This document shows positions 24,801 to 55,048 of a stretch of 64,000 nucleotides of DNA, piece after piece. The position numbers and the translations under genes are program-made. The stretch comes from a candidate division WWE3 bacterium (GTDB lineage: Bacteria; Patescibacteriota; WWE3; 2-01-FULL-39-13). The first letter of the stretch is position 1; the number at the start of each line of letters is the position of its first letter. The stretch spans positions 18,317 to 82,316 of the forward strand of contig JALWZX010000011.1 of the NCBI GenBank assembly GCA_027002375.1. Reading direction: 5' to 3'. A model generated the notes under the pieces. The model saw nothing but the letters and a program-made list of their open reading frames with translations, ran no database searches and was not told where the DNA came from.

Positions 24801-27051
24801 CGGGATTCTAACTGCGAATTCCCCATCAACAGTAGAATTTAGTGGCACATCAGCGACAGAAATTCCGGCATTAACCTATTACAACTTAAAACTAGCACCA
24901 TCAAGTGGCTCACCCACCCACACGCTTGGCACTGCCACATCGCAAACTATAGATATAAACGGCTCTCTAACGATAGGCGATTCTACAAATACAGTAACGG
25001 CAGATCTTGGCACATACTCACCCGCAATAAATATCAATAAAAGTTTAATAGTTAATTCTAACGCCACCATGTCAGGTTCATACTCAAACACTATTAAAAC
25101 CGCAGGTTCGGTAACCGGTGGTGGCGTGATTAACATCTCAGGCACAGGTTCGTTTGAAAATAACGCTTCTGCAAATGTTTCTTTTGGATCTTCAACGGGT
25201 TCTAATAACTGGTCGTTCAGCAATTTAGCTTTCACGAATTCTGTATTCACACCTGTAACAATAACGTTAAATTCGGGTGGTACAGGTACGATTCAGGTAA
25301 CCAATACTCTAACAATCGGCAATTCTGCAGATACAGAGACAACCATTTTAGATAACGAAACAAATGATCGTAACTTAGATTTAGTCGATTTAACAATTAC
25401 TGATAAGGGGGAATTTAAGGCATCTTCGACTTCCACACAAAAAATTGCACAAAACTTTACAAATAATGGTACGTTTACGCCAAACAATTCAACCATAGAG
25501 TTTGATGATTCAACTAAGACTTCCAAATTATTATATTCTAGTAACACAACATTCTATAATCTAACCGTAAATACAGATAATAAACAAATACAATTCGACG
25601 AAACTGAACAAACAAATATAACAGGAACATTAACATTGCAAGGTTCAGCCTGCGGAACTAGCAGAGTACTAGTAGATTCTACAACAGACAACGACCAATT
25701 TGATATAAACGCAACAGGATCAACAACAACAGAATATGTTGATATAGAAGATTCAAATGCAGTAACAGCGCTAACAGCACGAAACGCAACTGAAGATAAT
25801 GGCGGTAACACTAACTGGACAATAATCGCAGGATCTTGTGGTTCAAACACCCCACCAAATGACCCGACATCTTTAACACAGGCTAAAACAGACGATACAG
25901 TTTTAAACACAGGTGACTATACAAACGAAACTTCAATAAAATTTTCTGCATCGGCAAGTGATACTGACAACCCTGATGGCTTAAAATTGTGTGTAGAAAT
26001 ACAACCAGTTGGCACAGCGTTTACAGGCACATCTACACAATGTTCAGACGAACAAACATATACTGGTTCAGCTCTCACATTAACTACAACGATATCTGGT
26101 TTAGATGCAGACGAATCTTATCATTGGCAAGCAAAAATCACAGATACAGCAAATTCTGATTCTAACTGGGTTTCATATGGGGGAAATCTAGAGACGGCTC
26201 GCGATGTAGGCATAGACACAACAGCACCAACCGTTGCAACTATATACGATGGCGATGTTAACGGTGTTGATAAAGAGATTAGCTCGAGCTCCCTATCAGA
26301 ATTATCTGCAAATTGGGATAACTTTGATGCAACAGTATCCGGCATCAAAGAATATGAATATTCAATTGGTCTAACTCAGGGTGGCACAGAAATTCTAGGT
26401 TGGACATCAAATGGAACAAGCACATCAGTAACGGCAACGGGTTTAACATTGCAAACTTCAAAAGTATATTATTTCAATGTAAGAGCAACTGATAATGCAA
26501 GTAATATCTCTAATGTTGCATCATCAGATGGGCAGATTGTAGCACCAAGTTTGCAGTTTTCTGTAACACCACCGACAGTAGAATTCTCTAACTTAAATGC
26601 ATTGAATGGATATTCAGCAGAACAAACTGCAACATTAACTACATCAACTAATGCTTACAATGGGTACGAGATTCGGGCATTTTTGGCTAACTTGCTGACA
26701 TCCAGCGACGGCGTAAACACAATCCAAAACTTTGACGGTGGCACCTACTCTGCCCCTGCTTCATGGGATTCTTCAGATAGAGGTTTCGGATACACATCTA
26801 GCGACACTTCAATACAAGGTGTAGATAAATTTAATTCGTCAACATGTGCAGGGGGCGGAGCCGCTCCTTGTTATGCACCATTTGCAACATCATCACCTGG
26901 CGACATAGTCGCAGATCACGAATCCACAGTAAGCGGCTCCGCGATATCAAATGAGCAATTCAACGTAACTTACAAAGTACAAACTGACTCAACGCAACCT
27001 GCATCTAAATATTCGACAACAGTTATATACGCAATTACAGCTAAATATTAA
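18826..27051 (+). CDS. giant (2741 aa) secreted adhesin-like protein with rhamnosidase-N-type FN3 tandem domains, duplicated ~440-aa lectin-like module, FN3 domains and C-terminal WxL-like (YxL) anchoring domain
   Basis: Signal/TM segment (LMILLLILFLVVGPLTTSMSYAQ). The true start may be the internal Met at 19072. Two FN3-like units with the GH78-N signature (...STYYWRIKFWDN.G.EGAWS). Large internal duplication. C-terminal FN3s (YHWQAKITD, YYFNVRATD). Final ~170 aa are homologous to the C-terminus of ORF 28362-29477. Confidence 0.75.
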   Translation: MSMNLSNIFAKIKKRLAIVSYLQKCSIYLTDIATKFYAHLSKRFYCYDSANAHIALLLSIPKLIEKHLQRSFAVLITPAKTLMILLLILFLVVGPLTTSMSYAQKENVRNNQSVYKSDTTSPIKNVLLALKDSEGANKGDKTSKDIQIPTTKPPLEPENSDNVIQANKPIKLKIKDETIKAKKLRYIVEREKTHEMIEVTSIIDDINNQLVLKPKRAFRPGKYKLQVVENIDVDSTKNENVQAKQKDANNAQTKPSNNDQSPTEQPNTDRSTTDQTDNSLDEQVNSTQTTDSPSQQPIYEQEFLWGVLAYNSDKAQYLLYETAQFQIGVLDEQGNIICDADIDLTITNKDANHKTILSTKTGTITESNECIKHDFTLEPDYKSELQLTHSGKYTVEITATTKNGTYKTTDSFEVIEPDDVPFLIQRNTPTRVYPKKDYPVEITIIPNEDFNGEIVETVPRDFLIKRSYLGIPYTNIQKTSGDKKIIWKIKLEKDVPVILSYKYDAPNISPQFYLLGPIEFVRTTETTTLSDEPNQDTDNNRNLYKDNELDNAKDKNNNKNADKNNSTKKSDNNQQTKNKSQQNQNPNQRDQNKIKNVETIRNIDIPSIDLEPNNTYASKVTTNKKVIFTEQREWQLANDAIDDYAIYTDTNGTHDTDNSSYTGVPFNNQVAQGGIFTQNANDIDVGLGSDGHYLFGYVIQARNDSYGNRISYLSRVTLDETENLTGHGQGYRRNATNDRYYTYGYGIVNASSGDNIRVEVIRQGDNTASHTLEANRSSFWLVKLDDDWAYLKLQGQDNQSTSTSLQDINFTTSIENTDTDTFGHSTSTNSNQITLKSSGHYLVTYSVGVDGATSRTSVTTNLALNGTAIPQSYDYSYIRSLNSTTHGTATNMSIINASANDVLTLKWGATGAHSSYGTQTRSDRTFIAVVKLPDDGDYLMAHDTSGTQNVGGLNNTLTFDTSDEADSTSFSFSTSTGTATIQQDDTYLFMSGARSNRTTGTARLTSAGLFYVNGTQQSVGNTGVYVRGDQGTPDTFDGGWTGAGIFDLSQNDQVTFRQVDEGDNGGDDKFVANALGLTAINLDTILIPVTNDSPNAPQTPYVNNDTAQSGQASPVSNLTDITPAFSAIYDDNDASDTAPFYQIQVGDDTDWSDAPELWDSNKSSLTTAVNENSRSEDIIYNGTALTAGSTYYWRIKFWDNNGAEGAWSATQQFSMATNNDPNAPQTPYANNDTAQSGQVSPVYNLTDTTPAFSAIYDDDDTTDKASYYQLQVGDDTDWSDAPELWDSTKTAFTTSLDENSRSDDIIYGGSALTLGSTYYWRIKFWDNRGGEGAWSATQQFSLASSVGNDGDVAIYQDTNGTHNTNNTSYTGVPFNNVVTQDPTFSQNANDIDVKLVNGGHYLVGYKVEAQNTSYGNRIGYLSRLLLNSTEELSAHGQGYRRDATNNRYYAYGYGIISANASNNIRVEVIRNGTNSAEHDLIANKSSFWLAKLTDSWAYLRLQGQDNQTTSTSLQDINFTTSIENSDTNTFGHSTSTNSNQITLKQAGHYLVTYNVGIDSTTDRTSITTNLALNGTAIPQSYGYAYARGLNGATDATASNITIINASVNDILTLEWGATGAYATNGSQTRSDRTSIQIVKLPDTGDYLRIHENTDGQDIGGLNNTITFDTSDEADANSFTYSTSTSQTTINKGAFYIFTSGARTHRTTGGTRLTSKGAFFIDGTQSDLANTGTYIRGVQSPNNTLDGGWSAGGILSLSKNNVVDFRQIDEGGNGDDDKFVANSYGITAVNLNSFYTISISGTCQQYDESTNCANGETVKVAVDGQLQSQTTTTSSGTFTISGIPKPAKNSVITVFLDNVSDSNEAVTITKYAGSGDISNLKLYEEHLTLGNESNTSPISNSDVAKYDNSVSSDEDIFFDVDSSNNLTVDYTAQSTQEKLYVLANNTFRPDDTNATTVTTEKVKVDGGLTLDQTTFKITGSGTGSSVPITFGSNGILTANSPSTVEFSGTSATEIPALTYYNLKLAPSSGSPTHTLGTATSQTIDINGSLTIGDSTNTVTADLGTYSPAININKSLIVNSNATMSGSYSNTIKTAGSVTGGGVINISGTGSFENNASANVSFGSSTGSNNWSFSNLAFTNSVFTPVTITLNSGGTGTIQVTNTLTIGNSADTETTILDNETNDRNLDLVDLTITDKGEFKASSTSTQKIAQNFTNNGTFTPNNSTIEFDDSTKTSKLLYSSNTTFYNLTVNTDNKQIQFDETEQTNITGTLTLQGSACGTSRVLVDSTTDNDQFDINATGSTTTEYVDIEDSNAVTALTARNATEDNGGNTNWTIIAGSCGSNTPPNDPTSLTQAKTDDTVLNTGDYTNETSIKFSASASDTDNPDGLKLCVEIQPVGTAFTGTSTQCSDEQTYTGSALTLTTTISGLDADESYHWQAKITDTANSDSNWVSYGGNLETARDVGIDTTAPTVATIYDGDVNGVDKEISSSSLSELSANWDNFDATVSGIKEYEYSIGLTQGGTEILGWTSNGTSTSVTATGLTLQTSKVYYFNVRATDNASNISNVASSDGQIVAPSLQFSVTPPTVEFSNLNALNGYSAEQTATLTTSTNAYNGYEIRAFLANLLTSSDGVNTIQNFDGGTYSAPASWDSSDRGFGYTSSDTSIQGVDKFNSSTCAGGGAAPCYAPFATSSPGDIVADHESTVSGSAISNEQFNVTYKVQTDSTQPASKYSTTVIYAITAKY
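20750..22080 (+). repeat. intragenic duplication unit A1 (~443 aa lectin-like triple module) of giant adhesin gene
   Basis: Protein segment IYTDTNGTHDTDNSSYTGVPFNN...KFVANALGLTAINLD is ~70% identical to A2. Confidence 0.8.
22095..22478 (+). repeat. intragenic tandem repeat b1 (128-aa rhamnosidase-N-type FN3 unit)
   Basis: NDSPNAPQTPYVNNDTAQSGQ...STYYWRIKFWDNNGAEGAWSATQQFSMA. ~85% identical to b2 at the DNA level. Confidence 0.8.
22479..22862 (+). repeat. intragenic tandem repeat b2 (128-aa FN3 unit)
   Basis: NDPNAPQTPYANNDTAQSGQ...STYYWRIKFWDNRGGEGAWSATQQFSLA. Confidence 0.8.
22875..24205 (+). repeat. intragenic duplication unit A2
   Basis: IYQDTNGTHNTNNTSYTGVPFNN...KFVANSYGITAVNLN. Collinear with A1. 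Confidence 0.8.
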
Positions 27052-27164
27052 TTATGTGGAATTCAAGCAAAACCTTAAAACAAAAGAAAAATCTAGAAGC
27101 ACAACCACACAAGCGTCGAAAAGTTACCGAGTCTACCAAGTTCAAAAGCGAAACACCACGGACT

Positions 27165-27257
27165 AAAGCCCGTAGTTTCTTATCGCCAATTACCATATTA
27201 ACTAACCCTATCCACACACTAAAGTGTATGAATTTAAGTTTGGTGACAATAAGGCTA
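27165..27257 (+). repeat. MITE-like interspersed repeat, copy 1 (hairpin + TTATCGCCAAT ... AAGTTTGGTGACAATAA)
   Basis: Shares the ~90-bp consensus ...TTTCTTATCGCTAATTATTATATTGACTAACTCCATCCACACATTAAAGTGCGTATTTTTAAGTTTGGCGATAATAAA with 5 other loci. Confidence 0.6.
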
Positions 27258-28352
27258 GCACTAATATTGGCTGTTCTTACTTTACTAATTTTATTGTTTC
27301 CGTTAAAAACACAGGCAAAAGATTTGATAATTAAGAATCAACTAGAAAGCGAAAATGCATACATACAAGATAATACACAAAATACACAACAACCTGTGTT
27401 TAGAAAGCCAACAATTGATTCCCACAATGATTTCACAGACAAAACCCTTTCTAACCCACAAGTTAAAGGAAAAGCAGTTTTATCAACAATAGCGATTGGC
27501 GTATCGCCTGCCATAGCTGAACTTCCCGTAGACCCTGTGAAAACTAAAGTTGCGAAAGTATATGTTTTTAACAATACCAATGTGCCACTACCAATACATG
27601 CTTTTTCTGATAATTTTTCTGTAAACGAAATTGTAATAGACAGTACAAAAGACAATTCAAACACTTTCGATGCTTCAAATTGGATAACAATAGACCCACC
27701 TGACTTTATACTTCAACCAAACGAAGAAAAAGAGGTCTATATCTCAATTTCGCCTACACCAAATGCAGAACCAGGTGGGCATTATGCCACCGTTTACTTT
27801 AGACCCTTAATCTCAGAAGAATATATAACCCCAGATAAAACCTACTTAACTGCACAAATTGGTGTATTATTGTTCTTAACTGTTTCAGGAAAAATCAAAG
27901 AATCTGCAAATATTTCTAACTTAACTTTACCTAAATACCCTACGCCAGATAACTTTTTACCAACAGTTTACATACAAAACAACGGAAACATACATATAAT
28001 TCCCAAAGGTAAAATAACAATCAAGGGCTTGTTTAGAAAAACAACACATGAATTCCCAATAGAAAATTCAATAGTTCTACCAAATACAGAAAAAAAGGTG
28101 GTTTCGCATACCAAGGCTTCATTAAAGACGGGACTATATCGAACATATTTTACAGGCAATTATGGTAGCAACAACAAGCCACTGGCCAGTAGCGACAAGA
28201 TATTCTTCGTATTCCCAAACCACAAGACACTTATTACTATATTTATTCTAATAATAGTTACACTTTTAGTTCAAAAGTTTCATAGAAACATACCATTGGC
28301 TATAAAAGTCTTGTTTGGTAAAATTGATGAATACAAAAGTGGCAGGAACTAA
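27228..28352 (+). CDS. CscA/DUF916-like cell-surface protein (signal peptide + C-terminal TM anchor), paralog 1
   Basis: Signal peptide MNLSLVTIRLALILAVLTLLILLFPLKTQA. Conserved core with paralog 29827-30915 (PTPNAEPGGHYATVYF vs PPTNAEPGGHFGSIVF). C-terminal TM LITIFILIIVTLLV plus basic tail. The ORF-track start at 27054 is extended through a repeat element and is probably artefactual. Confidence 0.55.
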   Translation: MNLSLVTIRLALILAVLTLLILLFPLKTQAKDLIIKNQLESENAYIQDNTQNTQQPVFRKPTIDSHNDFTDKTLSNPQVKGKAVLSTIAIGVSPAIAELPVDPVKTKVAKVYVFNNTNVPLPIHAFSDNFSVNEIVIDSTKDNSNTFDASNWITIDPPDFILQPNEEKEVYISISPTPNAEPGGHYATVYFRPLISEEYITPDKTYLTAQIGVLLFLTVSGKIKESANISNLTLPKYPTPDNFLPTVYIQNNGNIHIIPKGKITIKGLFRKTTHEFPIENSIVLPNTEKKVVSHTKASLKTGLYRTYFTGNYGSNNKPLASSDKIFFVFPNHKTLITIFILIIVTLLVQKFHRNIPLAIKVLFGKIDEYKSGRN

Positions 28353-28361
28353 TTTTGGTTA

Positions 28362-29477
28362 TTGCCACTTTTGTGTTTTTTAGTAATCAAAAAGGAGGTG
28401 ACTAGTACACAAATGAAAAACAAAAAATTATTTAAAGTTTTTTCTATGTTATCAGTTACTGCGCTCACGCTTTCACAGGTGGCACTTTCCCTGTCTATGC
28501 CAACTGCTCAAGCAGCATCACTGTCTGACGGCTCTGTTTCGCTTAGCGATTCACGACCCAGTCAAACCAATGTTACCTATACATCTTCATTTCAAAATGT
28601 TTCGGCAACATCAATTCAATGTATAGAATTAAACTTTAACACTGTAGCAAGTGGCACAGGTTCAGTACCAACAGGAATGTCTACTACTAGTGCGACATTA
28701 AATAGTTCATCAACATACATAACTCCAGCCAACTGGACTGTTGATGCAACAACCAATGGTACTGTTAAACTAACCTACGCAACTGGCGAAAGTGGAACAG
28801 ACGGTAATATCATATTAGATGGAATCACAAATGGTTCAACGGTAGACACAGGGTATTTCTTGCGATTTACAACATATAGTGATTCTAGCTGTACTACAGC
28901 TGTAGACAACGCAACTATAATGTTCATCTATACTAACGGGCAACTCGTTTCGTTAACGGTAGACCCAACATTGAGCTTTAGCGTTGCTTCAGTAGCCTCA
29001 GGTCAAACAGTCAACGGTGCAACAACAAATGTTGCTACATCAACAACAACAATACCTTTTGGAACAGTAACAACAAGTACAGATGTAGTCGCCGCACACG
29101 ATTTAACCGTCACAACAAATGCAACCAATGGTTATACCTTATATACAAGATATACGGGACAATTAACCAATGGATCAGGTGCAACAATTGATGATGTATC
29201 AGGTACAAACGCAACACCAGCATCTTTTGATACGGGCGAAGCCTTTGGTTATACTACAAACGATGCAACATTAAGTAGTGCACCAGTAGACAGATTTACA
29301 TCTAGCGGTGGTAATAAATGGGCTTCTTTCACAACATCAAATGCAGAAGTCGCATACGCCGATTCAGCAGTAGATACAGACACAACAAGAGTTGGTTACC
29401 AAGTAGGCATAGCCGGAACAACAGAAGCTGGAACCTACACAACAACTGTTGTATATACTGCAACACCTACCTATTAA
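28362..29477 (+). CDS. secreted protein with C-terminal WxL-like (YxL variant) domain
   Basis: Signal peptide ending AQA. C-terminal ~170 aa (LSFSV...IPFGTV...HDLTVTTNATNGYTLY...GTYTTTVVYTATPTY) are collinear with the C-terminus of the 2741-aa protein. The layout matches the WxL domain with Trp replaced by Tyr. Confidence 0.55.
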   Translation: MPLLCFLVIKKEVTSTQMKNKKLFKVFSMLSVTALTLSQVALSLSMPTAQAASLSDGSVSLSDSRPSQTNVTYTSSFQNVSATSIQCIELNFNTVASGTGSVPTGMSTTSATLNSSSTYITPANWTVDATTNGTVKLTYATGESGTDGNIILDGITNGSTVDTGYFLRFTTYSDSSCTTAVDNATIMFIYTNGQLVSLTVDPTLSFSVASVASGQTVNGATTNVATSTTTIPFGTVTTSTDVVAAHDLTVTTNATNGYTLYTRYTGQLTNGSGATIDDVSGTNATPASFDTGEAFGYTTNDATLSSAPVDRFTSSGGNKWASFTTSNAEVAYADSAVDTDTTRVGYQVGIAGTTEAGTYTTTVVYTATPTY

Positions 29478-29526
29478 AAATAATGTAAATGTAGAAAATC
29501 CTTATCTTGAATTAAAGATAAAAAAT

Positions 29527-29560
29527 AGAAGCCCCGGGCATACGCCCGGGGCTTCTTAGA
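29527..29560 (+). terminator. rho-independent terminator (GAAGCCCCGGGC-atac-GCCCGGGGCTTC + T-rich tail)
   Basis: Perfect 12-bp GC-rich stem 50 nt after the stop of ORF 28362-29477. Confidence 0.7.
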
Positions 29561-29826
29561 TAAAACATTCATCATTACCAAATTAAACACCTCCATTCCA
29601 AAACGAAATTCTATGATTCTTCTCGCTCATATCCTTCAACACGAAATACCAGCACCACTTTCAGACCCACCCTCTAAAACGAAGTGCCCCACCACCACTC
29701 GACATCAATTTCAAAACGAGACGTTTTTCACATTTACTTCTCTTTTTCCTACCCTATTGCTACAAAATTTAATTTGTGTAAAATCAAATTACAGTAAAAA
29801 ATATAAATCAAATTATAAATAACCAA

Positions 29827-30915
29827 ATGGCATACAAAACAGTTCCTACCCCAAAGATTAAAACATTTAGTAAGTTAACATTAACTTTAGTACTTTCTAT
29901 TACTATACTTTTGGCGTTAAGTTCCCATTCATTAGCACAAGAAGACACCAACACTCAAGAGCACAAACCAACGCCAGAGCTTATAAACGAAAAGCCATCT
30001 ACCAAAAATGACACAAACACTAACCAAAATAACAATCAAAAAACAGATACTCCTACGGAAGATACGGTCACAGACTCTACCACCATAGCCGTATCGCCAC
30101 CAACATTCGAGTTGGTAACAAACCCAGGCACACAAATCAAAAACACAATAAAAGTTAGTAACCCATCAGACAAGCCTATACATGTAACAACAGACATCAG
30201 AAACTTTGTGGCAGTCGGTGAAGAAGGCGCGGTAAACTTGACAGATGAAGACACAACTTATTCCCTAGCAAAATGGATAACAATAGCACCAACAAATGCA
30301 ACAATAAAACCAAAATCAACAGAAATTTTCACGTTCATAATCAACCCCCCTACGAATGCAGAACCAGGTGGCCATTTTGGCTCAATAGTATTTAGAACTG
30401 GGGGAAATCAAATCAATGAAACTGGTGCCTCAGTTGCACAAGAAGTTGCATCATTAATATTACTAAAGATAGCAGGACCTACTACAGAAAAAGCAACTCT
30501 AGAAGAATTCAAAACAACAGACTCAGTATACCAATCGATACCAATAACCTTTGAATATAAGGTAAGAAACGAAGGTAACGTTCACATTAAACCAACAGGA
30601 AAAATAACCATAACTAACATATTTGGCAAAGAAGTTGATTCATTTGCAGTTCCACCAAAAAATGTATTACCAAGTGCAACTAGAAAAACAGACGTAAATT
30701 ACGATAAAAAAGATTTGTTTGGTAAATACAATGCTACACTGGTATTAACCTATGGTGCAAACAATGAAACATTAGTTTCAAACACAATCTTTACAGTAAT
30801 TCCTGTTAAAAAGGTTGCTGTAGCACTTATAATAACTGCAATAGTCTTGTTCTTACTACTAAAAGGCCGTAAAAGAATATCGATGTCTCTAAAAGTACTA
30901 TTTGGAAAACAATAG
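29827..30915 (+). CDS. CscA/DUF916-like cell-surface protein (signal peptide + C-terminal TM anchor), paralog 2
   Basis: Signal peptide ...SSHSLAQ. Core shared with 27228-28352. C-terminal TM VAVALIITAIVLFLLL plus KGRKR. Confidence 0.55.
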   Translation: MAYKTVPTPKIKTFSKLTLTLVLSITILLALSSHSLAQEDTNTQEHKPTPELINEKPSTKNDTNTNQNNNQKTDTPTEDTVTDSTTIAVSPPTFELVTNPGTQIKNTIKVSNPSDKPIHVTTDIRNFVAVGEEGAVNLTDEDTTYSLAKWITIAPTNATIKPKSTEIFTFIINPPTNAEPGGHFGSIVFRTGGNQINETGASVAQEVASLILLKIAGPTTEKATLEEFKTTDSVYQSIPITFEYKVRNEGNVHIKPTGKITITNIFGKEVDSFAVPPKNVLPSATRKTDVNYDKKDLFGKYNATLVLTYGANNETLVSNTIFTVIPVKKVAVALIITAIVLFLLLKGRKRISMSLKVLFGKQ

Positions 30916-32239
30916 TGAAATGACCCATAAAGAACTCTATGAAATTCGCCGGGTTAAGGCCTGTGGCTTCTCATCGCTAATTATTATGTTGACCAACTCT
31001 ATCCAAGCACTAAAGTACGTGGTTTTAAGTTTGTCGATAATAAACACATTTTTATTATCTGTATTATTCACTACATCATTTTTGCTAACTTTATTTAGCA
31101 CTTTAATCACGATTTCTCCCACATCTATACACGCCCAAACACCAATAACAGTTTCATTAGACATATCAGACACAATATTAAGAATTCAAGGCTATGCGAG
31201 TCCGTATGCAAACATAACATTTATAGAAAATGAAGCAGTTATAGGCACTACTCAGGCAAATGTTTATGGGGAATTCAACAAAAATATTACATACGAAAGT
31301 GAAGGTATACACACTGTTTCATTTTATTCTACAGATCAAAACTCAAGCACATCGAGTACAATTACAATAACAGTTGCTGTATACACGCATGCCGTTACAA
31401 CCATTGAAGACATATTAATTCCACCAACGATAGATATAGATAACCCTATTCATACAACTAATTCAGAAGAAATTATCACTTTTAGTGGTCAAGCGACACC
31501 AAATACAACAATAACATTAATATCTGGGGGGCTATCGAAACAAACACAAACTCTAGTAACAGGCAACTGGAAAATTACATTTACAGGTGATCAGTTCACA
31601 ATCGGAACTCACACAGCAATTACCAAAACACAAAAGTTAAATGGCACATTAAGCGAAAATTCAAAAACTATTACTTTCAAGATTAACGAATACATCCCAC
31701 CTGAACCTGAACCAACACCTATACCTACCCCAGAAGAAACTACAGAAACATCAAAAAGCAAAAGTGATGAGACTAAGGGAAATGACGACGAAGACAAAAA
31801 AGAAGACAATACTGAGAACAAAGATACAAATATAGTTAGCAAAATCATAACTAAGATAAATGAAATAATTAACGGTAATGGCAATTCTGAGATTGAATAT
31901 TCATGCAATCTACACCCTTACTTAAAAAACTTTGACTATAATGGAAATTGTTTCATACCACATCGAACAGAAGAATTCGTAAACACTGTAACATACTGGA
32001 CTAAAAACTGGCGTGAAACAACAACCGCCATAAAGGGCTTCTTCGCAAACATTAATGCAGGTGAAAATTTAGACAACCTATCACCAAACGAAAAGCAAAA
32101 ATTAGAAAAAGAGATTAAACGATGTGACCTTGACAACGACAATTTATGCACACTTAAAGACTTTTCGATACTATTATATTATACTAATAACATCGAAGTT
32201 ACAGTTCAAACTGACAAAAGTCAGGATATAAGAAATTAG
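30902..32239 (+). CDS. surface protein with Ig-like N-terminal region, P/T/E/D-rich linker and C-terminal Cys-containing domain
   Basis: Hydrophobic leader. The start may be the internal Met near 30986; the 5' end lies inside a repeat element. Ig-like TIDIDNPIHTTNSEEIITFSGQATPNTTITLISGG. Linker PEPEPTPIPTPEETTE. Four-Cys C-terminal domain. Confidence 0.5.
   Translation: MENNSEMTHKELYEIRRVKACGFSSLIIMLTNSIQALKYVVLSLSIINTFLLSVLFTTSFLLTLFSTLITISPTSIHAQTPITVSLDISDTILRIQGYASPYANITFIENEAVIGTTQANVYGEFNKNITYESEGIHTVSFYSTDQNSSTSSTITITVAVYTHAVTTIEDILIPPTIDIDNPIHTTNSEEIITFSGQATPNTTITLISGGLSKQTQTLVTGNWKITFTGDQFTIGTHTAITKTQKLNGTLSENSKTITFKINEYIPPEPEPTPIPTPEETTETSKSKSDETKGNDDEDKKEDNTENKDTNIVSKIITKINEIINGNGNSEIEYSCNLHPYLKNFDYNGNCFIPHRTEEFVNTVTYWTKNWRETTTAIKGFFANINAGENLDNLSPNEKQKLEKEIKRCDLDNDNLCTLKDFSILLYYTNNIEVTVQTDKSQDIRN
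30947..31047 (+). repeat. MITE-like interspersed repeat, copy 2
   Basis: GGCTTCTCATCGCTAATTATTATGTTGACCAACTCTATCCAAGCACTAAAGTACGTGGTTTTAAGTTTGTCGATAATAAA. Confidence 0.6.
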
Positions 32240-32246
32240 TGGAACA

Positions 32247-32278
32247 CCGACAGCTTATGCAGTCGGCATTTTGCGTTT
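32247..32278 (+). terminator. terminator-like hairpin (CCGACAGC-ttat-GCAGTCGG) + TTTTG
   Basis: Located 8 nt after the stop of 30902-32239. The same hairpin plus T-run is repeated after groEL at 60634. Confidence 0.55.
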
Positions 32279-32337
32279 ATCTCGCCAAAGCTGGTTAGGC
32301 TACGCAAAACAATCTCATCTGATTGTTTACACAATCA
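32247..32337 (+). repeat. terminator-associated structured element B, copy 1 (~90 nt, three hairpins)
   Basis: CCGACAGCTTATGCAGTCGGCATTTTGCGTTTATCTCGCCAAAGCTGG...TACGCAAAACAATCTCATCTGATTGTTTACACAATCA. Confidence 0.55.
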
Positions 32338-32364
32338 TGTTGAAGTTATGAATAGTAAAATATA

Positions 32365-33504
32365 ATGAAAATACATGGTTTATCTTTAGCATTAAAAATA
32401 GCAATAATACTGATCGGCTCATGGCTCTTAATACATGGTTTAGCTTCTTTGGGAACCTTTTTAGCGCTAGCCTACCCAATCTGGTGGATACTAGCTCCAA
32501 AAAAAACGTATTGCATAGCATGTCGTGCGCAAAAAGAATCTGGCTACTGTAGCTTTTGCGAAGAACCAATAAAACCACGCCAACTATATCCAAAGAACTT
32601 AAGATCTGCCATATTGAATGCAATAACGATACTATTTCTTTCTTTATTTTCTATATTTGTCGTTTATATAGAATCACAAATAATTCAAAAAGTAATAAAT
32701 ATTAACACAGAAAAAACTGTAACATTCTCAATTAATGACAAAGGCCAATATAAAATGGGTGAGATATTTTCTATGGATATAGAGATAAGCGGTGTTCAAA
32801 AACCAGTAAACGCAATACGTGCAGACGTACAATTTGATCCAAAAAGACTAGAAGTAGTAAACATATCAACAGAAAATTCGTTCGCAGATATATTCATACA
32901 AAAAGAATATGACAATGAAAAAGGGTTCGCACGGTTAACTGGTGGTCTACCTAACCCAGGCTACAATGGCAACAAAGGTCTATTCGGTACTATCTACTTT
33001 AAATCTAAAAAAGCGGGTTTAACAGAGGTAAAATTTTTACCGACATCATTAGTCCTAGCAAACGATGGTCATGGTACAAACATATTAAAAGCACCGGAAT
33101 CAGCATTGTTTTTAATACTGCCCGAAACGATTTCCGCATACGAATCAAAGAAACAAGAAGTTATATTAAAACCATTAGTATTGGGAACTCAAACCGATAA
33201 GACAAAAGATCAACTACATCTTTACGATACTAAAACACACGATATCTCATCATCAGTCTTGGGAATGCAAGTAGAGCAACTAGACGAAAACGCTAAAAAC
33301 ACAGATCAAACCTCAGGCACACAAAATCAACAGGCAAATCAAAGTGAAAAGAATACCTATAAAAAAACTACGCGAACAAAGACAAAACAATTAGCACAGG
33401 TCACGCAAGACAATCAAACAGAAGAACAAAATATATTACAAAAAATACTAACCTACCTACATAAAATCGATATTTTTATATTAAGTATCTGGCAAATATT
33501 TTAG
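32365..33504 (+). CDS. membrane protein with zinc-ribbon (CxxC...CxxC) loop and cohesin-like domain
   Basis: Two N-terminal TMs flank CIACRAQ...CSFCEE. Cohesin-like beta-sandwich motif (VNAIRADVQFDPKRLEVVNIST...GLFGTIYFKSKKAGLTEVKF). Q/T/N-rich tail. Confidence 0.5.
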   Translation: MKIHGLSLALKIAIILIGSWLLIHGLASLGTFLALAYPIWWILAPKKTYCIACRAQKESGYCSFCEEPIKPRQLYPKNLRSAILNAITILFLSLFSIFVVYIESQIIQKVININTEKTVTFSINDKGQYKMGEIFSMDIEISGVQKPVNAIRADVQFDPKRLEVVNISTENSFADIFIQKEYDNEKGFARLTGGLPNPGYNGNKGLFGTIYFKSKKAGLTEVKFLPTSLVLANDGHGTNILKAPESALFLILPETISAYESKKQEVILKPLVLGTQTDKTKDQLHLYDTKTHDISSSVLGMQVEQLDENAKNTDQTSGTQNQQANQSEKNTYKKTTRTKTKQLAQVTQDNQTEEQNILQKILTYLHKIDIFILSIWQIF

Positions 33505-41225: not shown

Positions 41226-42035
41226 CTATTTACACTCACCATCAAATTTCTCTTGATCCTTCCAATTTCCACCGGCGTACGTATCTAGCCATTCCACTAG
41301 ATCACTACTCATGTCTTCTTCGTTTATGTTGAGTTGATTATTTGTAATATCAAATTGACCTTTTGCCAAAGATTCTAAAGCTGTAACATCTTCTGGTATA
41401 TCACACGACAATTTATTTTTCTGAGCATGAAACACTTTTAACTTTTTGAGGTTAGATATAGATTGTGGAATATTACCTTCAATCGCATTGTTCGCAATAG
41501 AAAGCATCTTTAACTCAGACAGATTTCCTATCTTCTCGGGAATTTCACCCCTGATATTATTTTGGTATATCTCAAGATATTCTAGGTTAGTCATATCTGC
41601 GAATTCACTTGCAAATTCCCCTTCAAACTCATTCATACTTATATTTAATTTTTTCAAACCGGTTAGAGTAGAAAACATTTCAACATCACCACTCAATTTA
41701 TTATTGCTTAAATCAAGAACCTGCAAATTTTCTAGCTTTTCCAAATCATTTGGCACCTTACCACTTAATTCATTCCCTGATAAATTTAAGGTTTGTAGAC
41801 CAGACAATACTGACAACCCCACAGGAATTTTACCTATCAAATTATTTTCACGTAAATCTAAATTAACCACATGTTTTTTGTCGTCACTACATTCTATGCC
41901 ATACCAATTACATACGCTCGTATCTGCAACCCAACCCGTATTATCTTTCCACTCTTTACCATTAGTTTCGTCAAAAAGCTTAGCCAATACAACACACTCC
42001 TCTTTTGACACATCAGCCACTTTTGTGCATACCAC
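41226..42035 (-). CDS. plant-specific-type leucine-rich repeat protein with LRRNT_2-like Cys cap
   Basis: CNWYGIEC cap followed by ~8 LxxLxxLxLSxNxLSGxIP-type repeats. No signal peptide of its own. It is in frame with the upstream ORF across a single TGA (see findings). Confidence 0.7.
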   Translation of the reverse strand: MVCTKVADVSKEECVVLAKLFDETNGKEWKDNTGWVADTSVCNWYGIECSDDKKHVVNLDLRENNLIGKIPVGLSVLSGLQTLNLSGNELSGKVPNDLEKLENLQVLDLSNNKLSGDVEMFSTLTGLKKLNISMNEFEGEFASEFADMTNLEYLEIYQNNIRGEIPEKIGNLSELKMLSIANNAIEGNIPQSISNLKKLKVFHAQKNKLSCDIPEDVTALESLAKGQFDITNNQLNINEEDMSSDLVEWLDTYAGGNWKDQEKFDGECK

Positions 42036-42089
42036 TGCTACATCACCAGCCTCGGTTAATTCACACGCCGAAGGTGAAACCGAATTATC

Positions 42090-44144
42090 TCAAGTGTATC
42101 CTTTTTCAACTTCACACAAAGAAGAACATCCATCAGAATTTGACAAATTACCATCATCACACAGTTCACCTTCGTCTATAACACCATTGCCACATAAACT
42201 TTCTTCAATACCACCATTATTCGTATCATTACCACCTATCCCATCATCGTTTCCATCACTGTTTTCATCGTCATTTTCATCATCGTCGTTAAGTGTAGCC
42301 ATTTCATCATCTGACATTTCGTTAACAGAAATAGATTTCACAGTCGCTACGGTTTTTGACTTTGTGGTTAAAACATATAACTCATCAGGTACAAAATCGT
42401 CAGTCGTTTCCAAATAATCTGACTTATTTGGTTCAAATATCTTAGACTGGTTACTCAACGAATCTTTCAAAATAACCTGAACGCCTCCACTTTCTATATC
42501 AGCATCAAAACGAACCTCGTAATACTTATTTTCTGCCAACAAAATGTCTTGATATATACCACTACCCTGTCTTTCACTTTCTATCTTCTGAAAACCATTG
42601 CCAGCTTCATAATGTCTATACGACACATTAGCATCCGTAAACTTAGGATACACCTGCCATCCTTTAGCTATCGTGCCGAAGTCACATGGCTCAGCATTAT
42701 CACCTGTAGTCTCATCTGCAACTGCACATACACGATATTTTATCGTAAAGTTGGGTCTCAAATCTTCTTTTGAATCATACGAATAGATAATCTGTGAACC
42801 ATCCGTACCATTACCCTTAGCTTCAAGTATCATTCCGTTATTGTCTTCTGGGTTACTTGTCCAATCTATTGTCAAAAACCTCAAATCTGCTTCATACTTA
42901 CCTGTATTGTTCACATCATTTAACACAGACGCAATCCCGTTTACGTCATTATCACCATTTGCACCAGGCACTTCCCACTTTTCAGAAGAATTTACATCAA
43001 TCCATGTAACATCCTTAATACTATCGTGCCAGTTTTTAGAGACACCCATAAATCTATAAACATTATCGACATCTCCAGAATTTTTAACATTAAAAGTGAA
43101 TGTAGCACTATCTATAATTGCATTACGGGGAATTTCAGCGAGATCCCAATAAAACAATGGCTTGTCAACGTTTGCCCCAACCATCAATTCTTCTTTGTCA
43201 CTAAAATTTTTGTCGTTTGACGAACCGCTTATATACGTATCGTTCCCACGAAAAGTTTTCTCACCTTTTTCGCATACAACGTGAACAGGCTTCAAATCAC
43301 CGCTTAAATCTTCTTCTATTCCATCGTCATCACCACTATCATCTATATTATCACTATCTTCATCGCCCGTATTATCTGTATCATCATTAGCATCTCCATT
43401 ATCGATCCCGTCAGAATCTGAACTATCTTCTTTATATTCGACAGATAATGTTGGTTCCTTTTCACCATTCTCAGAAGACCAAAATGTATAATCCTTATCA
43501 ACAGCATCTGTAACAAGCAAAACACCATAGTTACCATTACTTATTTGCTCGCTAACGATATCCGTAATATCAACTAATGTTGTATTTCCGTCTTTATATA
43601 TATAACCTTCTCCATGTGCTGTATTTAAAAACTCATTAACCAATTCGTTCCCGCTAATTGGCGGTAAGGGCCCACTGATTGCACCAACAGGATTAAACTT
43701 TTCGCCATCATACGTTCCAAGCAATTTTATAATCTCTTGTACATCTTGTTTTTTACTGTTCCACGATTCATCGAGCATGAAAGCGTAAATTTTGTTGGTT
43801 TCCTTATCAAAATTTTCAGTCGGCATTAACCTAACAGTAGCCTTCAAAATAGTTTTGTTAGAATCTAAATTTGCTAAATCAAACTTAATATACGAGACAG
43901 TCTCGCCACGCTTAAAATGAAGCATGTTATCTGTATATTCAGAACCATCTTTTGCATAGCTCTCATCCTCACTAGCCAGAATGCTCAAGCTATCAGTACC
44001 CAACACAGCCTTTTTATAACTATCAGACACCTCAGCATGTATAGTGCCAATGTTGTAAAAAGAATATAAGCCTACGATAAGCACAAAGGATAAAATTCCT
44101 GATAATGAAGTTTTAATGTTTTTTAAAAGTCTTTTTCTGGGCAT
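42090..44144 (-). CDS. secreted surface protein with two DNRLRE-like modules, poly-acidic linkers and C-terminal Myxococcus-type cysteine-rich repeat
   Basis: Signal peptide ...IGTIHA. DNRLRE-like motifs (VSYIKFDLANLDSNKTILKATVRLM; LFYWDLAEIPRNAIIDSATFTFNV). D/E/G-rich runs. Terminal CGNGVIDEGELCDDGNLSNSDGCSSLC. Confidence 0.6.
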   Translation of the reverse strand: MPRKRLLKNIKTSLSGILSFVLIVGLYSFYNIGTIHAEVSDSYKKAVLGTDSLSILASEDESYAKDGSEYTDNMLHFKRGETVSYIKFDLANLDSNKTILKATVRLMPTENFDKETNKIYAFMLDESWNSKKQDVQEIIKLLGTYDGEKFNPVGAISGPLPPISGNELVNEFLNTAHGEGYIYKDGNTTLVDITDIVSEQISNGNYGVLLVTDAVDKDYTFWSSENGEKEPTLSVEYKEDSSDSDGIDNGDANDDTDNTGDEDSDNIDDSGDDDGIEEDLSGDLKPVHVVCEKGEKTFRGNDTYISGSSNDKNFSDKEELMVGANVDKPLFYWDLAEIPRNAIIDSATFTFNVKNSGDVDNVYRFMGVSKNWHDSIKDVTWIDVNSSEKWEVPGANGDNDVNGIASVLNDVNNTGKYEADLRFLTIDWTSNPEDNNGMILEAKGNGTDGSQIIYSYDSKEDLRPNFTIKYRVCAVADETTGDNAEPCDFGTIAKGWQVYPKFTDANVSYRHYEAGNGFQKIESERQGSGIYQDILLAENKYYEVRFDADIESGGVQVILKDSLSNQSKIFEPNKSDYLETTDDFVPDELYVLTTKSKTVATVKSISVNEMSDDEMATLNDDDENDDENSDGNDDGIGGNDTNNGGIEESLCGNGVIDEGELCDDGNLSNSDGCSSLCEVEKGYT

Positions 44145-44410
44145 GTTACACCTTTGGGATAAGTATATTTAACTTCAACAGAGCCTTCTGTAAAAGACCC
44201 ATTGTTAACTCTTTCTGTGGTTTTGTCTGTTCCTGCTTCTTGCTTAGTATTAACGACTTGCATAGCTGAATAAATTACAACAGGTAATGCTAAAAACAAA
44301 AAGACTGCTATTGCTATTTGTTTTTTGCTAAGTGAAGTGCTTTGCATATTACATATATTTTACACTATATATTTAGGAAATCAAAATCTATGCAACATAC
44401 ATTGAATTCC

Positions 44411-44546
44411 TTTATAAGTTTGGCGATAATGAAACCACGGGCTTCAGCCCGTGGTTTCTTATCAGCAATTACTCTATATTGACTAACTCCATCCACACAT
44501 TAAAGCGCGTATTTTTAAGTTTGGCGATAATAAATTTAAAATATAG
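44411..44546 (+). repeat. MITE-like interspersed repeat, copy 5, with extra flanking 3'-end unit (AAGTTTGGCGATAAT present at both ends)
   Basis: AAGTTTGGCGATAATGAAA-CCACGGGCTTCAGCCCGTGG-TTTCTTATCAGCAATTACTCTATATTGACTAACTCCATCCACACATTAAAGCGCGTATTTTTAAGTTTGGCGATAATAAA. Confidence 0.6.
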
Positions 44547-52885: not shown

Positions 52886-55048
52886 CTACAAAGGCGATTC
52901 AAAAGAATTCGTTTCATCTTCTTCATACAGTTTAACGTTATTTTTTATCACTTCGTCAACAACTTGATATATTTTATAATATTTTGTGTAGCTGTTACTT
53001 TTTATCTTGTGCACATAATCTATCTCCGGGTATGTAACAGTCAAGGTTTTACCCAAAAACGGCTTGCTAATCTTGCCATCAACACTAATCTTTGCCCAAA
53101 ACTTTCTAATGTCTAGATACGTAAAATCTTCTGGCAACAAATATGGTTTGAATTCCTCATATAAAATATTTGCATCACTTTGACCTAACCTGAAACTAAA
53201 GATAGAGCCGACATTTCCTAATATAGATTTCATAATATTTGGTTCAATTTGCCCTAAATACTGATGCGCAACAGTTAGTGCCAGTTTATATTTTCTTGCC
53301 TCAGAAAAAATATTCACAAAACTTTCTGTGCTAAACTTTTGAAATTCATCTACAAATAAGTTTGCCTGATGTCTTTCTTCGGTGGGCGCGTAAGTTTGTG
53401 AAAACATTTCTTGCAAAATTCTAGATATCATCATTGACCCTAAAAACGCGCTATTCCACTCACCCAACGCGCCCACCGACAAATTCACAAGTAAAATCTT
53501 TTTCTCTTTTAACACATCTCTAATGTAAAACGAACTTTTAGTCATACTAACAATTCTTCTAACTGTCGCATTAGAAAGCATTTGATTTACCTTACTAATT
53601 AGTGGCGAAACAGCTTCCCTACCATACTTATCAGAAAATGATAAGAATTCCACCGACCAAAAAGTCTTAACCACATCATCACCTATTTTCTCTATCAAAT
53701 CGTTGCGAAAAGTATTATCACTTAGTAATTTAGGAATTCTATCAATAGTTGCACCATTAGAATATTGAAGCGCCAAAACAACCTGCTTTAACAAAAACTC
53801 AAGCTTTGGGTTCCAATCAACACCAAAAAATTTCTTAAAACTTTCAACAACACCGTCAACATACAACTCTTCACTTCTGCTCACCCTTTCTAACGGATTA
53901 AAAGACAAAATAAAATCATGACTAGTAAAATCAGCATAAATCACATCGTCTTTTCTTTCTTTAGGAATTAATCTAAGCATATCTTTAGCAGTATCACCGT
54001 GTGGGTCAAGAAAAATAACACCCTCACCTTTATAAATATCATTCAACATCAAAAGTTCCATAAGTTTAGTCTTACCACTACCCGTTTTACCAACAATATA
54101 CACATGTTGATTTCTATCTTTTGGTGGAATTCCAACAAAATCAACCCCCAACCTACTAACATCATCAGCACCAACCGGTGCATCAATATCATAAAAGATA
54201 CCTCCAGGGGAAACCCCAACACCAACAATAGAAGTATCTTTACGTTTAGAAGCATCAGCAACACTTTTTGAAACAGGCAAAACTTTTTCGTTCTTTGTAA
54301 TTAACTTTCTAGACATATTTATACTCGCAGGAAAATGCAAAACAGTTGAAATTTCGTCAACAGACAGCAAATCATTCAATTTTATCTTAGAATATTCACC
54401 CGGTTCTATTTTTGAAAACTTAAAAGAATTTCCATTTTTAAGAGAAAATCTATCAAAATAAAGTTTGAAGTCAGAAACATCTAGAATATCTTTATCATTA
54501 GAAATAAGCCGAATTTCCACATCATACAAGCTACCCTCAAACTTATTTTTAGTAAGTTTAACAATCTCACGATTACCTCGTAACACAGATGCCGCACCAG
54601 TAGAAAAACTCACCTTCTCTGTAATACCCTTACTGTGCTTTTTCACCCAAACCTCAAGCGAAATAAACAAATCATTACCTTTAAAATTTTGAAAAATCTC
54701 AACCAAGTGATCAACATAATCAATATCTAAATTATCAAATGTTTTATAGGGAACTAAACCATCTTTACTCTGCACAACCCTTTTAATAAACAAGTCCCCC
54801 ACCCTTGGATACTCATTGGTAACCGACACCCCCATATCAGGAAACAAAGATTTAATTACATTACTAACACTATCTGCATTCTCATCGGGAACACCCAGAA
54901 CAAAATAAAGATAATTATCAACTCTCGTTAAACCAATTAAAAACGCACTCTTATCACAAAGTTTTGCGGTACTATTTATAAAGTCAGAAAATTTAGTTAA
55001 ATCATGAACATCTTCAGTTGAAGGTTTTAAATAATAGTATTTGTGCAT
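52886..55048 (-). CDS. FtsK/HerA/TraD-superfamily P-loop ATPase (HerA/DUF87-like), no TM anchor
   Basis: Walker A VGKTGSGKT, followed by IFLDPHGD. Walker B LFVDEFQKF. ARKYKLALTVAHQYLGQI motif typical of HerA/TraD/VirD4 ATPases. ~300-aa unknown N-terminal domain. Confidence 0.6.
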   Translation of the reverse strand: MHKYYYLKPSTEDVHDLTKFSDFINSTAKLCDKSAFLIGLTRVDNYLYFVLGVPDENADSVSNVIKSLFPDMGVSVTNEYPRVGDLFIKRVVQSKDGLVPYKTFDNLDIDYVDHLVEIFQNFKGNDLFISLEVWVKKHSKGITEKVSFSTGAASVLRGNREIVKLTKNKFEGSLYDVEIRLISNDKDILDVSDFKLYFDRFSLKNGNSFKFSKIEPGEYSKIKLNDLLSVDEISTVLHFPASINMSRKLITKNEKVLPVSKSVADASKRKDTSIVGVGVSPGGIFYDIDAPVGADDVSRLGVDFVGIPPKDRNQHVYIVGKTGSGKTKLMELLMLNDIYKGEGVIFLDPHGDTAKDMLRLIPKERKDDVIYADFTSHDFILSFNPLERVSRSEELYVDGVVESFKKFFGVDWNPKLEFLLKQVVLALQYSNGATIDRIPKLLSDNTFRNDLIEKIGDDVVKTFWSVEFLSFSDKYGREAVSPLISKVNQMLSNATVRRIVSMTKSSFYIRDVLKEKKILLVNLSVGALGEWNSAFLGSMMISRILQEMFSQTYAPTEERHQANLFVDEFQKFSTESFVNIFSEARKYKLALTVAHQYLGQIEPNIMKSILGNVGSIFSFRLGQSDANILYEEFKPYLLPEDFTYLDIRKFWAKISVDGKISKPFLGKTLTVTYPEIDYVHKIKSNSYTKYYKIYQVVDEVIKNNVKLYEEDETNSFESPL

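Follow-up and report, generated by a model that had tools for sequence, protein, structure and literature searches.

Two in-frame open reading frames of a WWE3-like bacterium are very probably the halves of one surface-protein gene, recently truncated at a conserved cysteine codon

We analysed a 64-kilobase (kb) stretch of DNA from a candidate division WWE3 bacterium (contig JALWZX010000011.1, hereafter the window) and examined a minus-strand locus in which two open reading frames (ORFs) follow one another in the same frame. The first of them, ORF1, has 684 codons, starts with an ATG at 44144 and ends ...CEVEKGYT-TGA. After this TGA, the same frame is open for 286 further codons (DNSVSPSACELTEAGDVAVVCTKVADV...GECK), up to a TAG at 41226-41228, and encodes a leucine-rich repeat (LRR) protein segment. 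An earlier reading of this DNA, made without any database search (the sequence-only reading), had already described the run of the frame from ORF1 into the LRR ORF and this is correct, except that it placed the TGA at 42087-42089, where the codon is GAT; the TGA lies 3 nucleotides (nt) away, at 42090-42092. The locus comprises the following parts, with residues numbered along the continuous frame.

42093..44144, minus strand: upstream fragment (ORF1), 684 codons, collinear with residues 13-567 of the distant homologue P0120 (E = 3e-55)
Residues 1-37 of ORF1: signal peptide, MPRKRLLKNIK (basic), then LSGILSFVLIVGLYSF (hydrophobic), then IHA/EV, recognised by inspection
About residues 44-236 of ORF1: DNRLRE/CBM96-like domain 1
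About residues 237-285 of ORF1: acidic linker 1
Residues 302-468 of ORF1: DNRLRE domain 2
About residues 470-612 of ORF1: beta-rich domain without family assignment
About residues 613-647 of ORF1: acidic linker 2
Residues 651-677 of ORF1: first four Cys of the Cys repeat
42063..42203, minus strand: single six-Cys module of the 'myxo_disulf_rpt'/DUF4215 kind spanning the stop codon, residues 648-694, SLCGNGVIDEGELCDDGNLSNSDGCSSLCEVEKGYT[TGA]DNSVSPSAC
42090..42092, minus strand: in-frame TGA in place of Cys685 (Cys5 of the repeat); TGC in a sister strain, hence C-to-A at the third codon position
41229..42089, minus strand: downstream fragment, 286 codons in the same frame, closed by the TAG at 41226-41228
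Residues 686-712, downstream fragment: remainder of the Cys repeat and a linker
Residues 713-752, downstream fragment: LRRNT-like cap (SKEECVVLAKLFDETNGKEWKDNTGWVADTSVCNWYGIEC)
Following the cap, downstream fragment: about seven plant-specific-type LRRs of 23-24 residues (LxxLxLxxNxLxGxIP), then a C-terminal cap ending GECK, by inspection
42020..42035, minus strand: GTG start candidates used by ORF finders for an LRR gene, 42035 giving 269 amino acids (aa) and 42020 giving 264 aa
41964..41966, minus strand: codon ACT (Thr727), intact in the window; site of a +1 T insertion in the sister strain
41960..43300, minus strand: mosaic patch of ~10% nucleotide divergence between the two strains

The pair of DNRLRE-like domains named by the sequence-only reading is borne out by the profile NF033679 (DNRLRE_dom), which matches ORF1 in two stretches with 101.7 bits (cut-off 34), and the CBM96 profile PF24517 matches with 45.8 bits (cut-off 26). 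In the downstream frame, the profiles LRR_1 (73.7 bits), LRR_8 (71.8), LRR_4 (68.2) and LRR_14 (65.3) are all above their cut-offs (E 1e-18 to 1e-22), and repeats such as LQTLNLSGNELSGKVPNDLEKLEN and LEYLEIYQNNIRGEIPEKIGNLSE can be recognised in the translation by inspection. The match of LRRNT_2 to the cap is weak (15.2-17.0 bits vs a gathering score of 20.7); the cap motif is common to the window, P0120 and two other bacterial proteins, P0002 and P0003.

Gene callers annotate the locus as two genes in three assemblies. If these were genuine and separately expressed, a 684-aa secreted protein would be followed by an LRR protein of 264-269 aa initiated at a GTG. The LRR module is indeed complete within the 264-aa ORF, and the open in-frame continuation is not beyond chance alone: at the base composition of the window, the chance of a downstream gene lying in frame with 18 stop-free intervening codons is about 0.095, and comparative evidence is therefore needed to decide between one gene and two.

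The first line of such evidence is that the stop codon falls within a protein domain. TIGR02232 matches ORF1 with 47.9 bits against a cut-off of 20.8, and residues 649-684 correspond to model positions 2-37 of 38, the match ending precisely at the TGA. Seven residues were tried at this codon, and Cys alone lengthens the match to 38/38; likewise DUF4215, which scores 26.7 bits for ORF1 alone against a threshold of 27, reaches 28.2 bits when the TGA is read as Cys. A census of 70 repeat units from 12 unrelated proteins found Cys at the TGA-equivalent position in 65/70, with the next Cys 6-10 residues further on (65/70), usually after PS-x. The window encodes ...DNSVSPSAC past the TGA, its Cys being 9 residues after it. 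When the sister allele (described below) was used as a phmmer query, thousands of repeat proteins were found; as a rule, the units of these proteins cover query residues about 650-695 and extend beyond the TGA. The Cys census together with the SPSAC beyond the TGA shows a six-Cys module in which the TGA replaces Cys5 and Cys6 lies past the stop. As encoded in the window the repeat is incomplete, stopping at Cys5, and a full six-Cys unit results only if the TGA stands for Cys. The Myxococcus-type Cys repeat of the sequence-only reading is hence real by its TIGR02232 score, but it does not end the upstream protein as had been supposed, its last 10 residues being past the stop. Two separate genes would need a boundary that cuts this domain between Cys4 and Cys6.

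The second line of evidence comes from a sister strain, about 95% identical, whose protein P0009 (727 aa) is the second member of the 90% cluster of ORF1. Two contigs of identical sequence encode it, L003 (ENA ERZ23491340, sample SAMN10217878) and L004 (Logan SRR13853570). P0009 has TGC (Cys) at the site of the window's TGA and reads on in frame (...GYTCDNSVSPSACELTEAGDVAVVCTNVADVSKEECVVLAKLFGET), so the comparison of orthologs that had been recommended does yield a sense codon, and the sister allele translates straight through the supposed gene boundary. The window and the sister differ at four positions in the next 12 codons, and each of these is a synonymous third-position change. Over the 40 codons between the TGA and a frameshift of the sister's own, six changes are synonymous and two are non-synonymous (ratio of non-synonymous to synonymous rates, dN/dS, 0.09); the probability that at least six of eight changes are synonymous under neutrality is 0.0035. 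This indicates that the 'intergenic' stretch evolved as coding sequence in this very frame, and the 17-22 codons that two separate genes would leave between them are under coding constraint and encode Cys6.

The LRR frame, moreover, has little that would make it a gene of its own. Its start candidates are GTG or TTG only (42035, 42020, 42011 and 41987), there is no ATG for about 130 codons, and no hydrophobic N-terminus or signal peptide was found in the frame, in agreement with the sequence-only reading, which had the LRR ORF begin at a GTG without a signal peptide. The GTG candidates at 42020 and 42035 are embedded in coding-like, G+C-richer sequence and have no A/T-rich leader. Among the reference genes of the window, 25/25 confident genes start at an ATG behind an A/T-rich leader (e.g., TAATTA-ATG) with essentially no Shine-Dalgarno motif, which suggests Shine-Dalgarno-independent initiation in this WWE3-like genome, as judged from its leaders. 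A separate LRR gene would thus be a Cys-capped protein of the extracellular type with no ATG, native-type leader or signal peptide.

The third line of evidence is a distant homologue. Among 1.84 billion representatives, P0120 (1258 aa) was the only protein collinear with the whole body of the reconstructed protein, and it is fused. Residues 14-612 of the reconstruction align to P0120 13-567 (E = 3e-55), and residues 706-906 align to each of three LRR modules in P0120 with 31-36% identity (E about 1e-33). The LRR modules of P0120 begin ...FSCENVTDVSQKECEALVALYNSTNG..., like that of the window, and each of them reads ...C-ENV-DVS-KECEALVALYNSTNG..W.N.DGW...NNVC.W.G+.C, to which the window is very similar (...CTKVADVSKEECVVLAKLFDETNGKEWKDNTGWVADTSVCNWYGIEC). 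Other bacterial proteins of several domains (P0002, P0003 and P0004) likewise carry the capped LRR module internally or at the C-terminus. No orthologs came to light that are split throughout, with the LRR protein having a start and signal peptide of its own.

Because the stop interrupts a domain, Cys occupies the site in the sister strain, coding constraint continues after the stop and the homologue P0120 is fused, we conclude that the two ORFs are very probably the halves of one ancestral gene of ~972 codons, which underwent a recent nonsense truncation in the strain of the window. We regard two separately expressed genes as very improbable. The proposal of the sequence-only reading, a single secreted protein of ~970 aa broken by one nonsense codon, is accordingly upheld by the split six-Cys domain, the sister's Cys, purifying selection and P0120; and of the three origins that it had offered for the codon, a recent pseudogenising mutation is the one we favour.

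What the sequence-only reading had missed is that the sister strain carries a second, independent lesion. About 125 nt downstream of the TGA site, at about 41965, the sister allele has a +1 T insertion (window GAAACTAAT, sister GAAACTTAAT) which shifts the reading frame straight into a TAA; the LRR part behind it is called separately, in a different frame. This frameshift is present in two assemblies. Each allele is thus intact where the other is broken, which implies an ancestor with a full-length ORF of about 972 codons and a loss of the LRR part on two occasions. Divergence between the two strains is also unevenly distributed: upstream of 43300, as well as in the LRR part, 100 nt contain 0-1 differences, against ~10% across 41960-43300. 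Judged by its sequence, this patch is a signature of recombination in a surface-protein gene; it has a dS of 0.42 and a dN/dS of 0.125, and both lesions lie inside it or on its border. Purifying selection, strong throughout this stretch, shows that the gene was functional for most of the history of the two alleles. Since the LRR frame is still open and almost identical between the strains (about 99.5%), the lesions must be recent. The probability that two lesions cluster in this way at the junction of repeat and LRR in a 2.9-kb gene is about 0.09.

Two further observations concern the ends of the sister contigs. The last 55 nt of L003 (3412-3466) depart from the window at the position equivalent to 41581 and run into a TAA (...EFADMTNLDTSFALSIENM*), a tail that is absent from the window; it is either a further rearrangement truncating the sister's LRR part or a contig-end artefact. 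The L004 contig (SRR13853570_328528 in Logan) ends at 2680-2698 in an untrimmed Nextera adapter, CTGTCTCTTATACACATCT.

The TGA and the sister's TGC differ by a single base, and an error of sequencing or assembly would leave an intact gene with a true C or T (Cys) at this position. The same TGA is, however, found in two independently built assemblies, ENA ERZ23491050 (sample SAMN10217877) and Logan SRR14510437, which agree with the window at 100% identity over 22 kb and 18 kb, respectively; the 83-kb NCBI contig, too, codes for this 684-aa product. Substitution errors in the consensus outside homopolymers are improbable in short-read assemblies, and the sister's frameshift likewise recurs in two assemblies. 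We consider an error, which the sequence-only reading had kept among its options, to be very unlikely.

A reassigned genetic code (table 4 or 25, with UGA as Trp or Gly) can be excluded, as the sequence-only reading had anticipated from TGA being a genuine stop elsewhere. Treating TGA as a sense codon makes none of the real genes longer. The TAA/TAG-delimited frames of 2275 and 2741 codons, about 5,000 codons together, contain zero TGA, as do those of MetRS, GroEL, a UvrD-like helicase and others; TGG is used 188 times in the window, and of its 32 genes five others have TGA as their stop.

If the UGA were leaky or subject to programmed read-through, the cell would make mostly the short form, plus a fraction of full-length protein in which a near-cognate tRNA (Trp or Cys) had decoded it. 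No stop codon is leakier in bacteria than UGA, the 286 codons that follow contain no further stop, and a hairpin may be drawn that begins 6-8 nt beyond the UGA and in which one pair changes from A-U to G-C between the strains. Yet the stop is not conserved, the sister having Cys, and the hairpin is no more stable than shuffled sequences (folds of 76 nt and 51 nt; z = +0.2, -0.1 and +0.8), while its predicted fold varies with the excerpt and the allele. The four nearby substitutions are all synonymous third-position changes as in plain coding sequence, and the seemingly 'compensatory' A-U to G-C change was judged a coincidence among these four. The open frame is explained by the recency of the mutation, given the near-identity of the LRR part, and the sister breaks the same junction by a frameshift that is beyond rescue by read-through. 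Programmed read-through had been another option of the sequence-only reading; we found no support for it in conservation, stable structure or a selenocysteine insertion sequence (SECIS), and hold it to be improbable, with only a slim chance of being true.

Selenocysteine (Sec) is a special case of recoding, in which the UGA would be decoded as Sec in place of the fifth Cys, forming a Sec/Cys pair with the sister strain and a full-length selenoprotein. The exact alignment of the UGA with a conserved Cys, and Cys in the closest allele, make up the classical signature used in selenoprotein prediction. In opposition to this, there is no SECIS match in Rfam even at E <= 10, no tRNA-Sec in the window and no stable or consistent hairpin directly 3' of the UGA; the Cys occupies a structural disulfide position in an extracellular repeat and not a redox active site; and the UGA is not conserved, the sister strain having broken the same gene, which fits decay. 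ARAGORN and Rfam (gathering thresholds) found only tRNA-Phe and tRNA-Cys in the 64-kb window and no tRNA-Sec, a permissive Rfam scan of 41850-42250 gave only C/D-box noise, and no Sec gene is present among the annotated ORFs of the window. To our knowledge, the Sec trait has not been reported in the Patescibacteria, with their reduced genomes, and a literature search gave nothing relevant. We therefore regard a selenoprotein as exceedingly improbable.

From these comparisons, the course of events may be reconstructed. The full-length protein would have consisted, in order, of a signal peptide, two DNRLRE/CBM96-like domains, a beta-rich domain, an acidic linker, one six-Cys module and a capped plant-type LRR domain. 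A single C-to-A change converted TGC, the codon for the fifth Cys of the repeat, into TGA. Translation would then end at residue 684, and the product would carry four of the six repeat Cys and no LRR domain. The LRR frame would be left as an untranslated remnant or, at best, as a poorly initiated cytoplasmic one, with presumably no read-through of functional importance. The sister strain, intact at the TGA codon, acquired its own +1 frameshift 125 nt further on, so that the LRR part was lost twice independently. Behind the parallel loss there may have been either a relaxation of selection or selection against the LRR domain itself.

Some points weigh against a single gene with a recent truncation. 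P0120 is without the Cys repeat, and it consequently backs the fusion of body and LRR and not the exact junction. Apart from a single close relative (3.4 kb) and a single distant homologue that is collinear, other scans found no relatives: the fused protein had no match among genome contigs, and neither it nor the adjacent UvrD-like helicase had a match among metagenome contigs. In a word-indexed search with the fused protein, the matches were swamped by LRR proteins. The TGA is known from assembly consensus sequences, and some natural UGA read-through at a low level may take place. Lastly, both alleles are broken within the same 125-nt interval, which could hint at regulation rather than decay; this hint is countered by the lesion sites, which are without a repeat tract or conserved structure. 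In particular, we found no simple-sequence tract of a phase-variable locus at either site (C-to-A; T to TT in ...GAAACTAAT...).

Conceivably, the parallel losses were selected. In this scenario, the LRR domain would have been removed in parallel from a surface protein of episymbiotic bacteria of the candidate phyla radiation (CPR), with both lesions sparing the N-terminal 684-727 residues; we consider it a rather doubtful possibility. If it were true, the loss of the LRR could aid phage escape or alter the recognition of the host cell, and the divergent patch might belong to this arms race as well. Much less probable still is a version in which decoding of the UGA, as Sec or by read-through, supplies the full-length form in regulated amounts.

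The 5' end of the locus holds one more reading frame.

44123..44347, minus strand: 74-aa ORF, overlapping the start of ORF1 by 22 nt in another frame; matches P0120 residues 9-72 (E = 3e-10)

It consists of a signal anchor and a TE..NG.F...Y...V.CP..D segment; ORF1 is without that segment and has its own start and signal peptide. The 74-aa ORF may be what is left of an earlier 5' end of this gene, or else a small gene in its own right, and the 5' end of the locus may have been rearranged too. We compared the 5' ends of the 74-aa ORF and ORF1 and found no duplication at the DNA level. A fusion of the two by a -1 frameshift was rejected, as an extracellular protein would then have a second hydrophobic segment midway along its chain, for which P0120 has no counterpart.

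The window is chromosomal, with genes for MetRS, GroEL, a polyprenyl synthase, RmuC, a DeoC-type aldolase, an ROK kinase, an RND pump, tRNA-Phe and tRNA-Cys; a type IV coupling-protein-like ATPase and many surface proteins are also encoded. Among named GroEL sequences, those from candidate division WWE3 (80%) and from 'Patescibacteria group' metagenome-assembled genomes (78%) are the closest, and those of species representatives are at most 62% identical across many phyla. A relative with a 92%-identical GroEL is syntenic nearby, up to a PEGA/SH3 gene. The ATPase (52886-55048, minus strand; T4SS-DNA_transf/DUF87/TrwB) adjoins housekeeping genes, and in the relative with the 92%-identical GroEL (L086, 13262-18109), PrgI-, TraC- and TraG-like genes come after GroEL. 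These genes have the look of a type IV secretion or competence-like system that is chromosomal and conserved in synteny. The window also has giant ORFs at 4405-11211 (minus strand, 2268 codons) and 18826-27051 (plus strand, 2741 codons). Next to the latter, five same-strand ORFs at 27054-33504 (plus strand), three of which have weak surface-protein domains (WxLIP peptidoglycan-binding, Big_6 and Cohesin), look like a surface or adhesion gene cluster, going by these matches.

An element of ~100-130 nt occurs in three copies, at 44415-44545 (plus strand) and, in diverged form, at about 27120-27290 and about 30925-31080, with a mean column identity of 74%. It contains a long and very stable hairpin, GATAATGAAACCACGGGC-TTCA-GCCCGTGGTTTCTTATC (fold z = -4.8), flanked by direct repeats AAGTTTGGCGATAAT. 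One copy is intergenic, between the gene studied here and a META-domain gene, and two are in the 5' parts of called ORFs (27054.. and 30902..). None of the copies, that at 44415-44545 included, has an Rfam match; by its repeats and fold, the element could be a miniature inverted-repeat transposable element (MITE), a repetitive extragenic palindromic (REP)-like element or a small RNA.

For annotation, these results mean that the 264-269-aa 'LRR protein' and the 684-aa 'DUF4215 protein' of public assemblies are to be merged and flagged as one disrupted gene, and that the stand-alone LRR ORF should not be taken as a cytoplasmic eukaryote-like effector. They also emphasize that an in-frame UGA at a conserved Cys can come from an ordinary TGC-to-TGA mutation and is insufficient for calling a selenoprotein. 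The loss of the same LRR domain by different mutations, within a recombined patch, in two co-occurring WWE3-like strains fits a rapid turnover of CPR surface proteins.

The locus can be compared with several known systems. Like bacterial selenoprotein genes, it has a UGA in frame where homologues have Cys, but it differs from them in having no SECIS and no Sec machinery seen, in the non-redox nature of the Cys and in a UGA that is not conserved. Members of the TIGR02232/DUF4215 proteins share its six-Cys pattern, CGNG...GE.CDDGN...DGCS..C..E.GY.C....PS.C, with a TIGR02232 score above the cut-off; they typically have 6-45 tandem units, whereas the window gene has one unit as an interdomain spacer, the fifth Cys codon of which is a stop. 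The LRR part resembles that of bacterial proteins with capped plant-type LRRs, both in the cap (...L..L....NG..W....GW......C.W.G+.C) followed by 23-24-residue LxxLxLxxNxLxGxIP repeats and in the position of the module C-terminal to other extracellular domains. The LRR regions of Xanthomonas XopAC/XopL are the best partial matches to the window LRR in NCBIfam; the window protein is nevertheless not a type III effector, its scores being far under the cut-offs for XopAC, XopL and XopAE (e.g., 75 vs 450 bits).

The DNRLRE family is described in archaeal and bacterial surface proteins (PMC2447325), and the related CBM96 is alginate-binding, as shown for its founding member (PMC9971899). With two DNRLRE-type domains above the cut-offs, the window gene resembles DNRLRE/CBM96 surface proteins and differs from them in having no attached catalytic domain. 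By this analogy, it fits a carbohydrate- or ligand-binding surface protein with DNRLRE domains that are putatively carbohydrate-binding. The combination of DNRLRE, Cys repeat and LRR was seen only in the window locus, and that of DNRLRE and LRR in P0120. In essence, the locus is an ordinary recent gene truncation and not a recoding signal, an instance of a well-known kind of event. As in other recent bacterial pseudogenes and truncated alleles, a conserved sense codon has become a stop within a domain, the downstream frame is open and a relative is intact at the codon; an independent second lesion, the frameshift in the relative, adds to the likeness. It differs from such pseudogenes in nothing essential, and what is unusual is that both known alleles are cut in the same 125-nt junction while the N-terminal 70% of the protein is kept.

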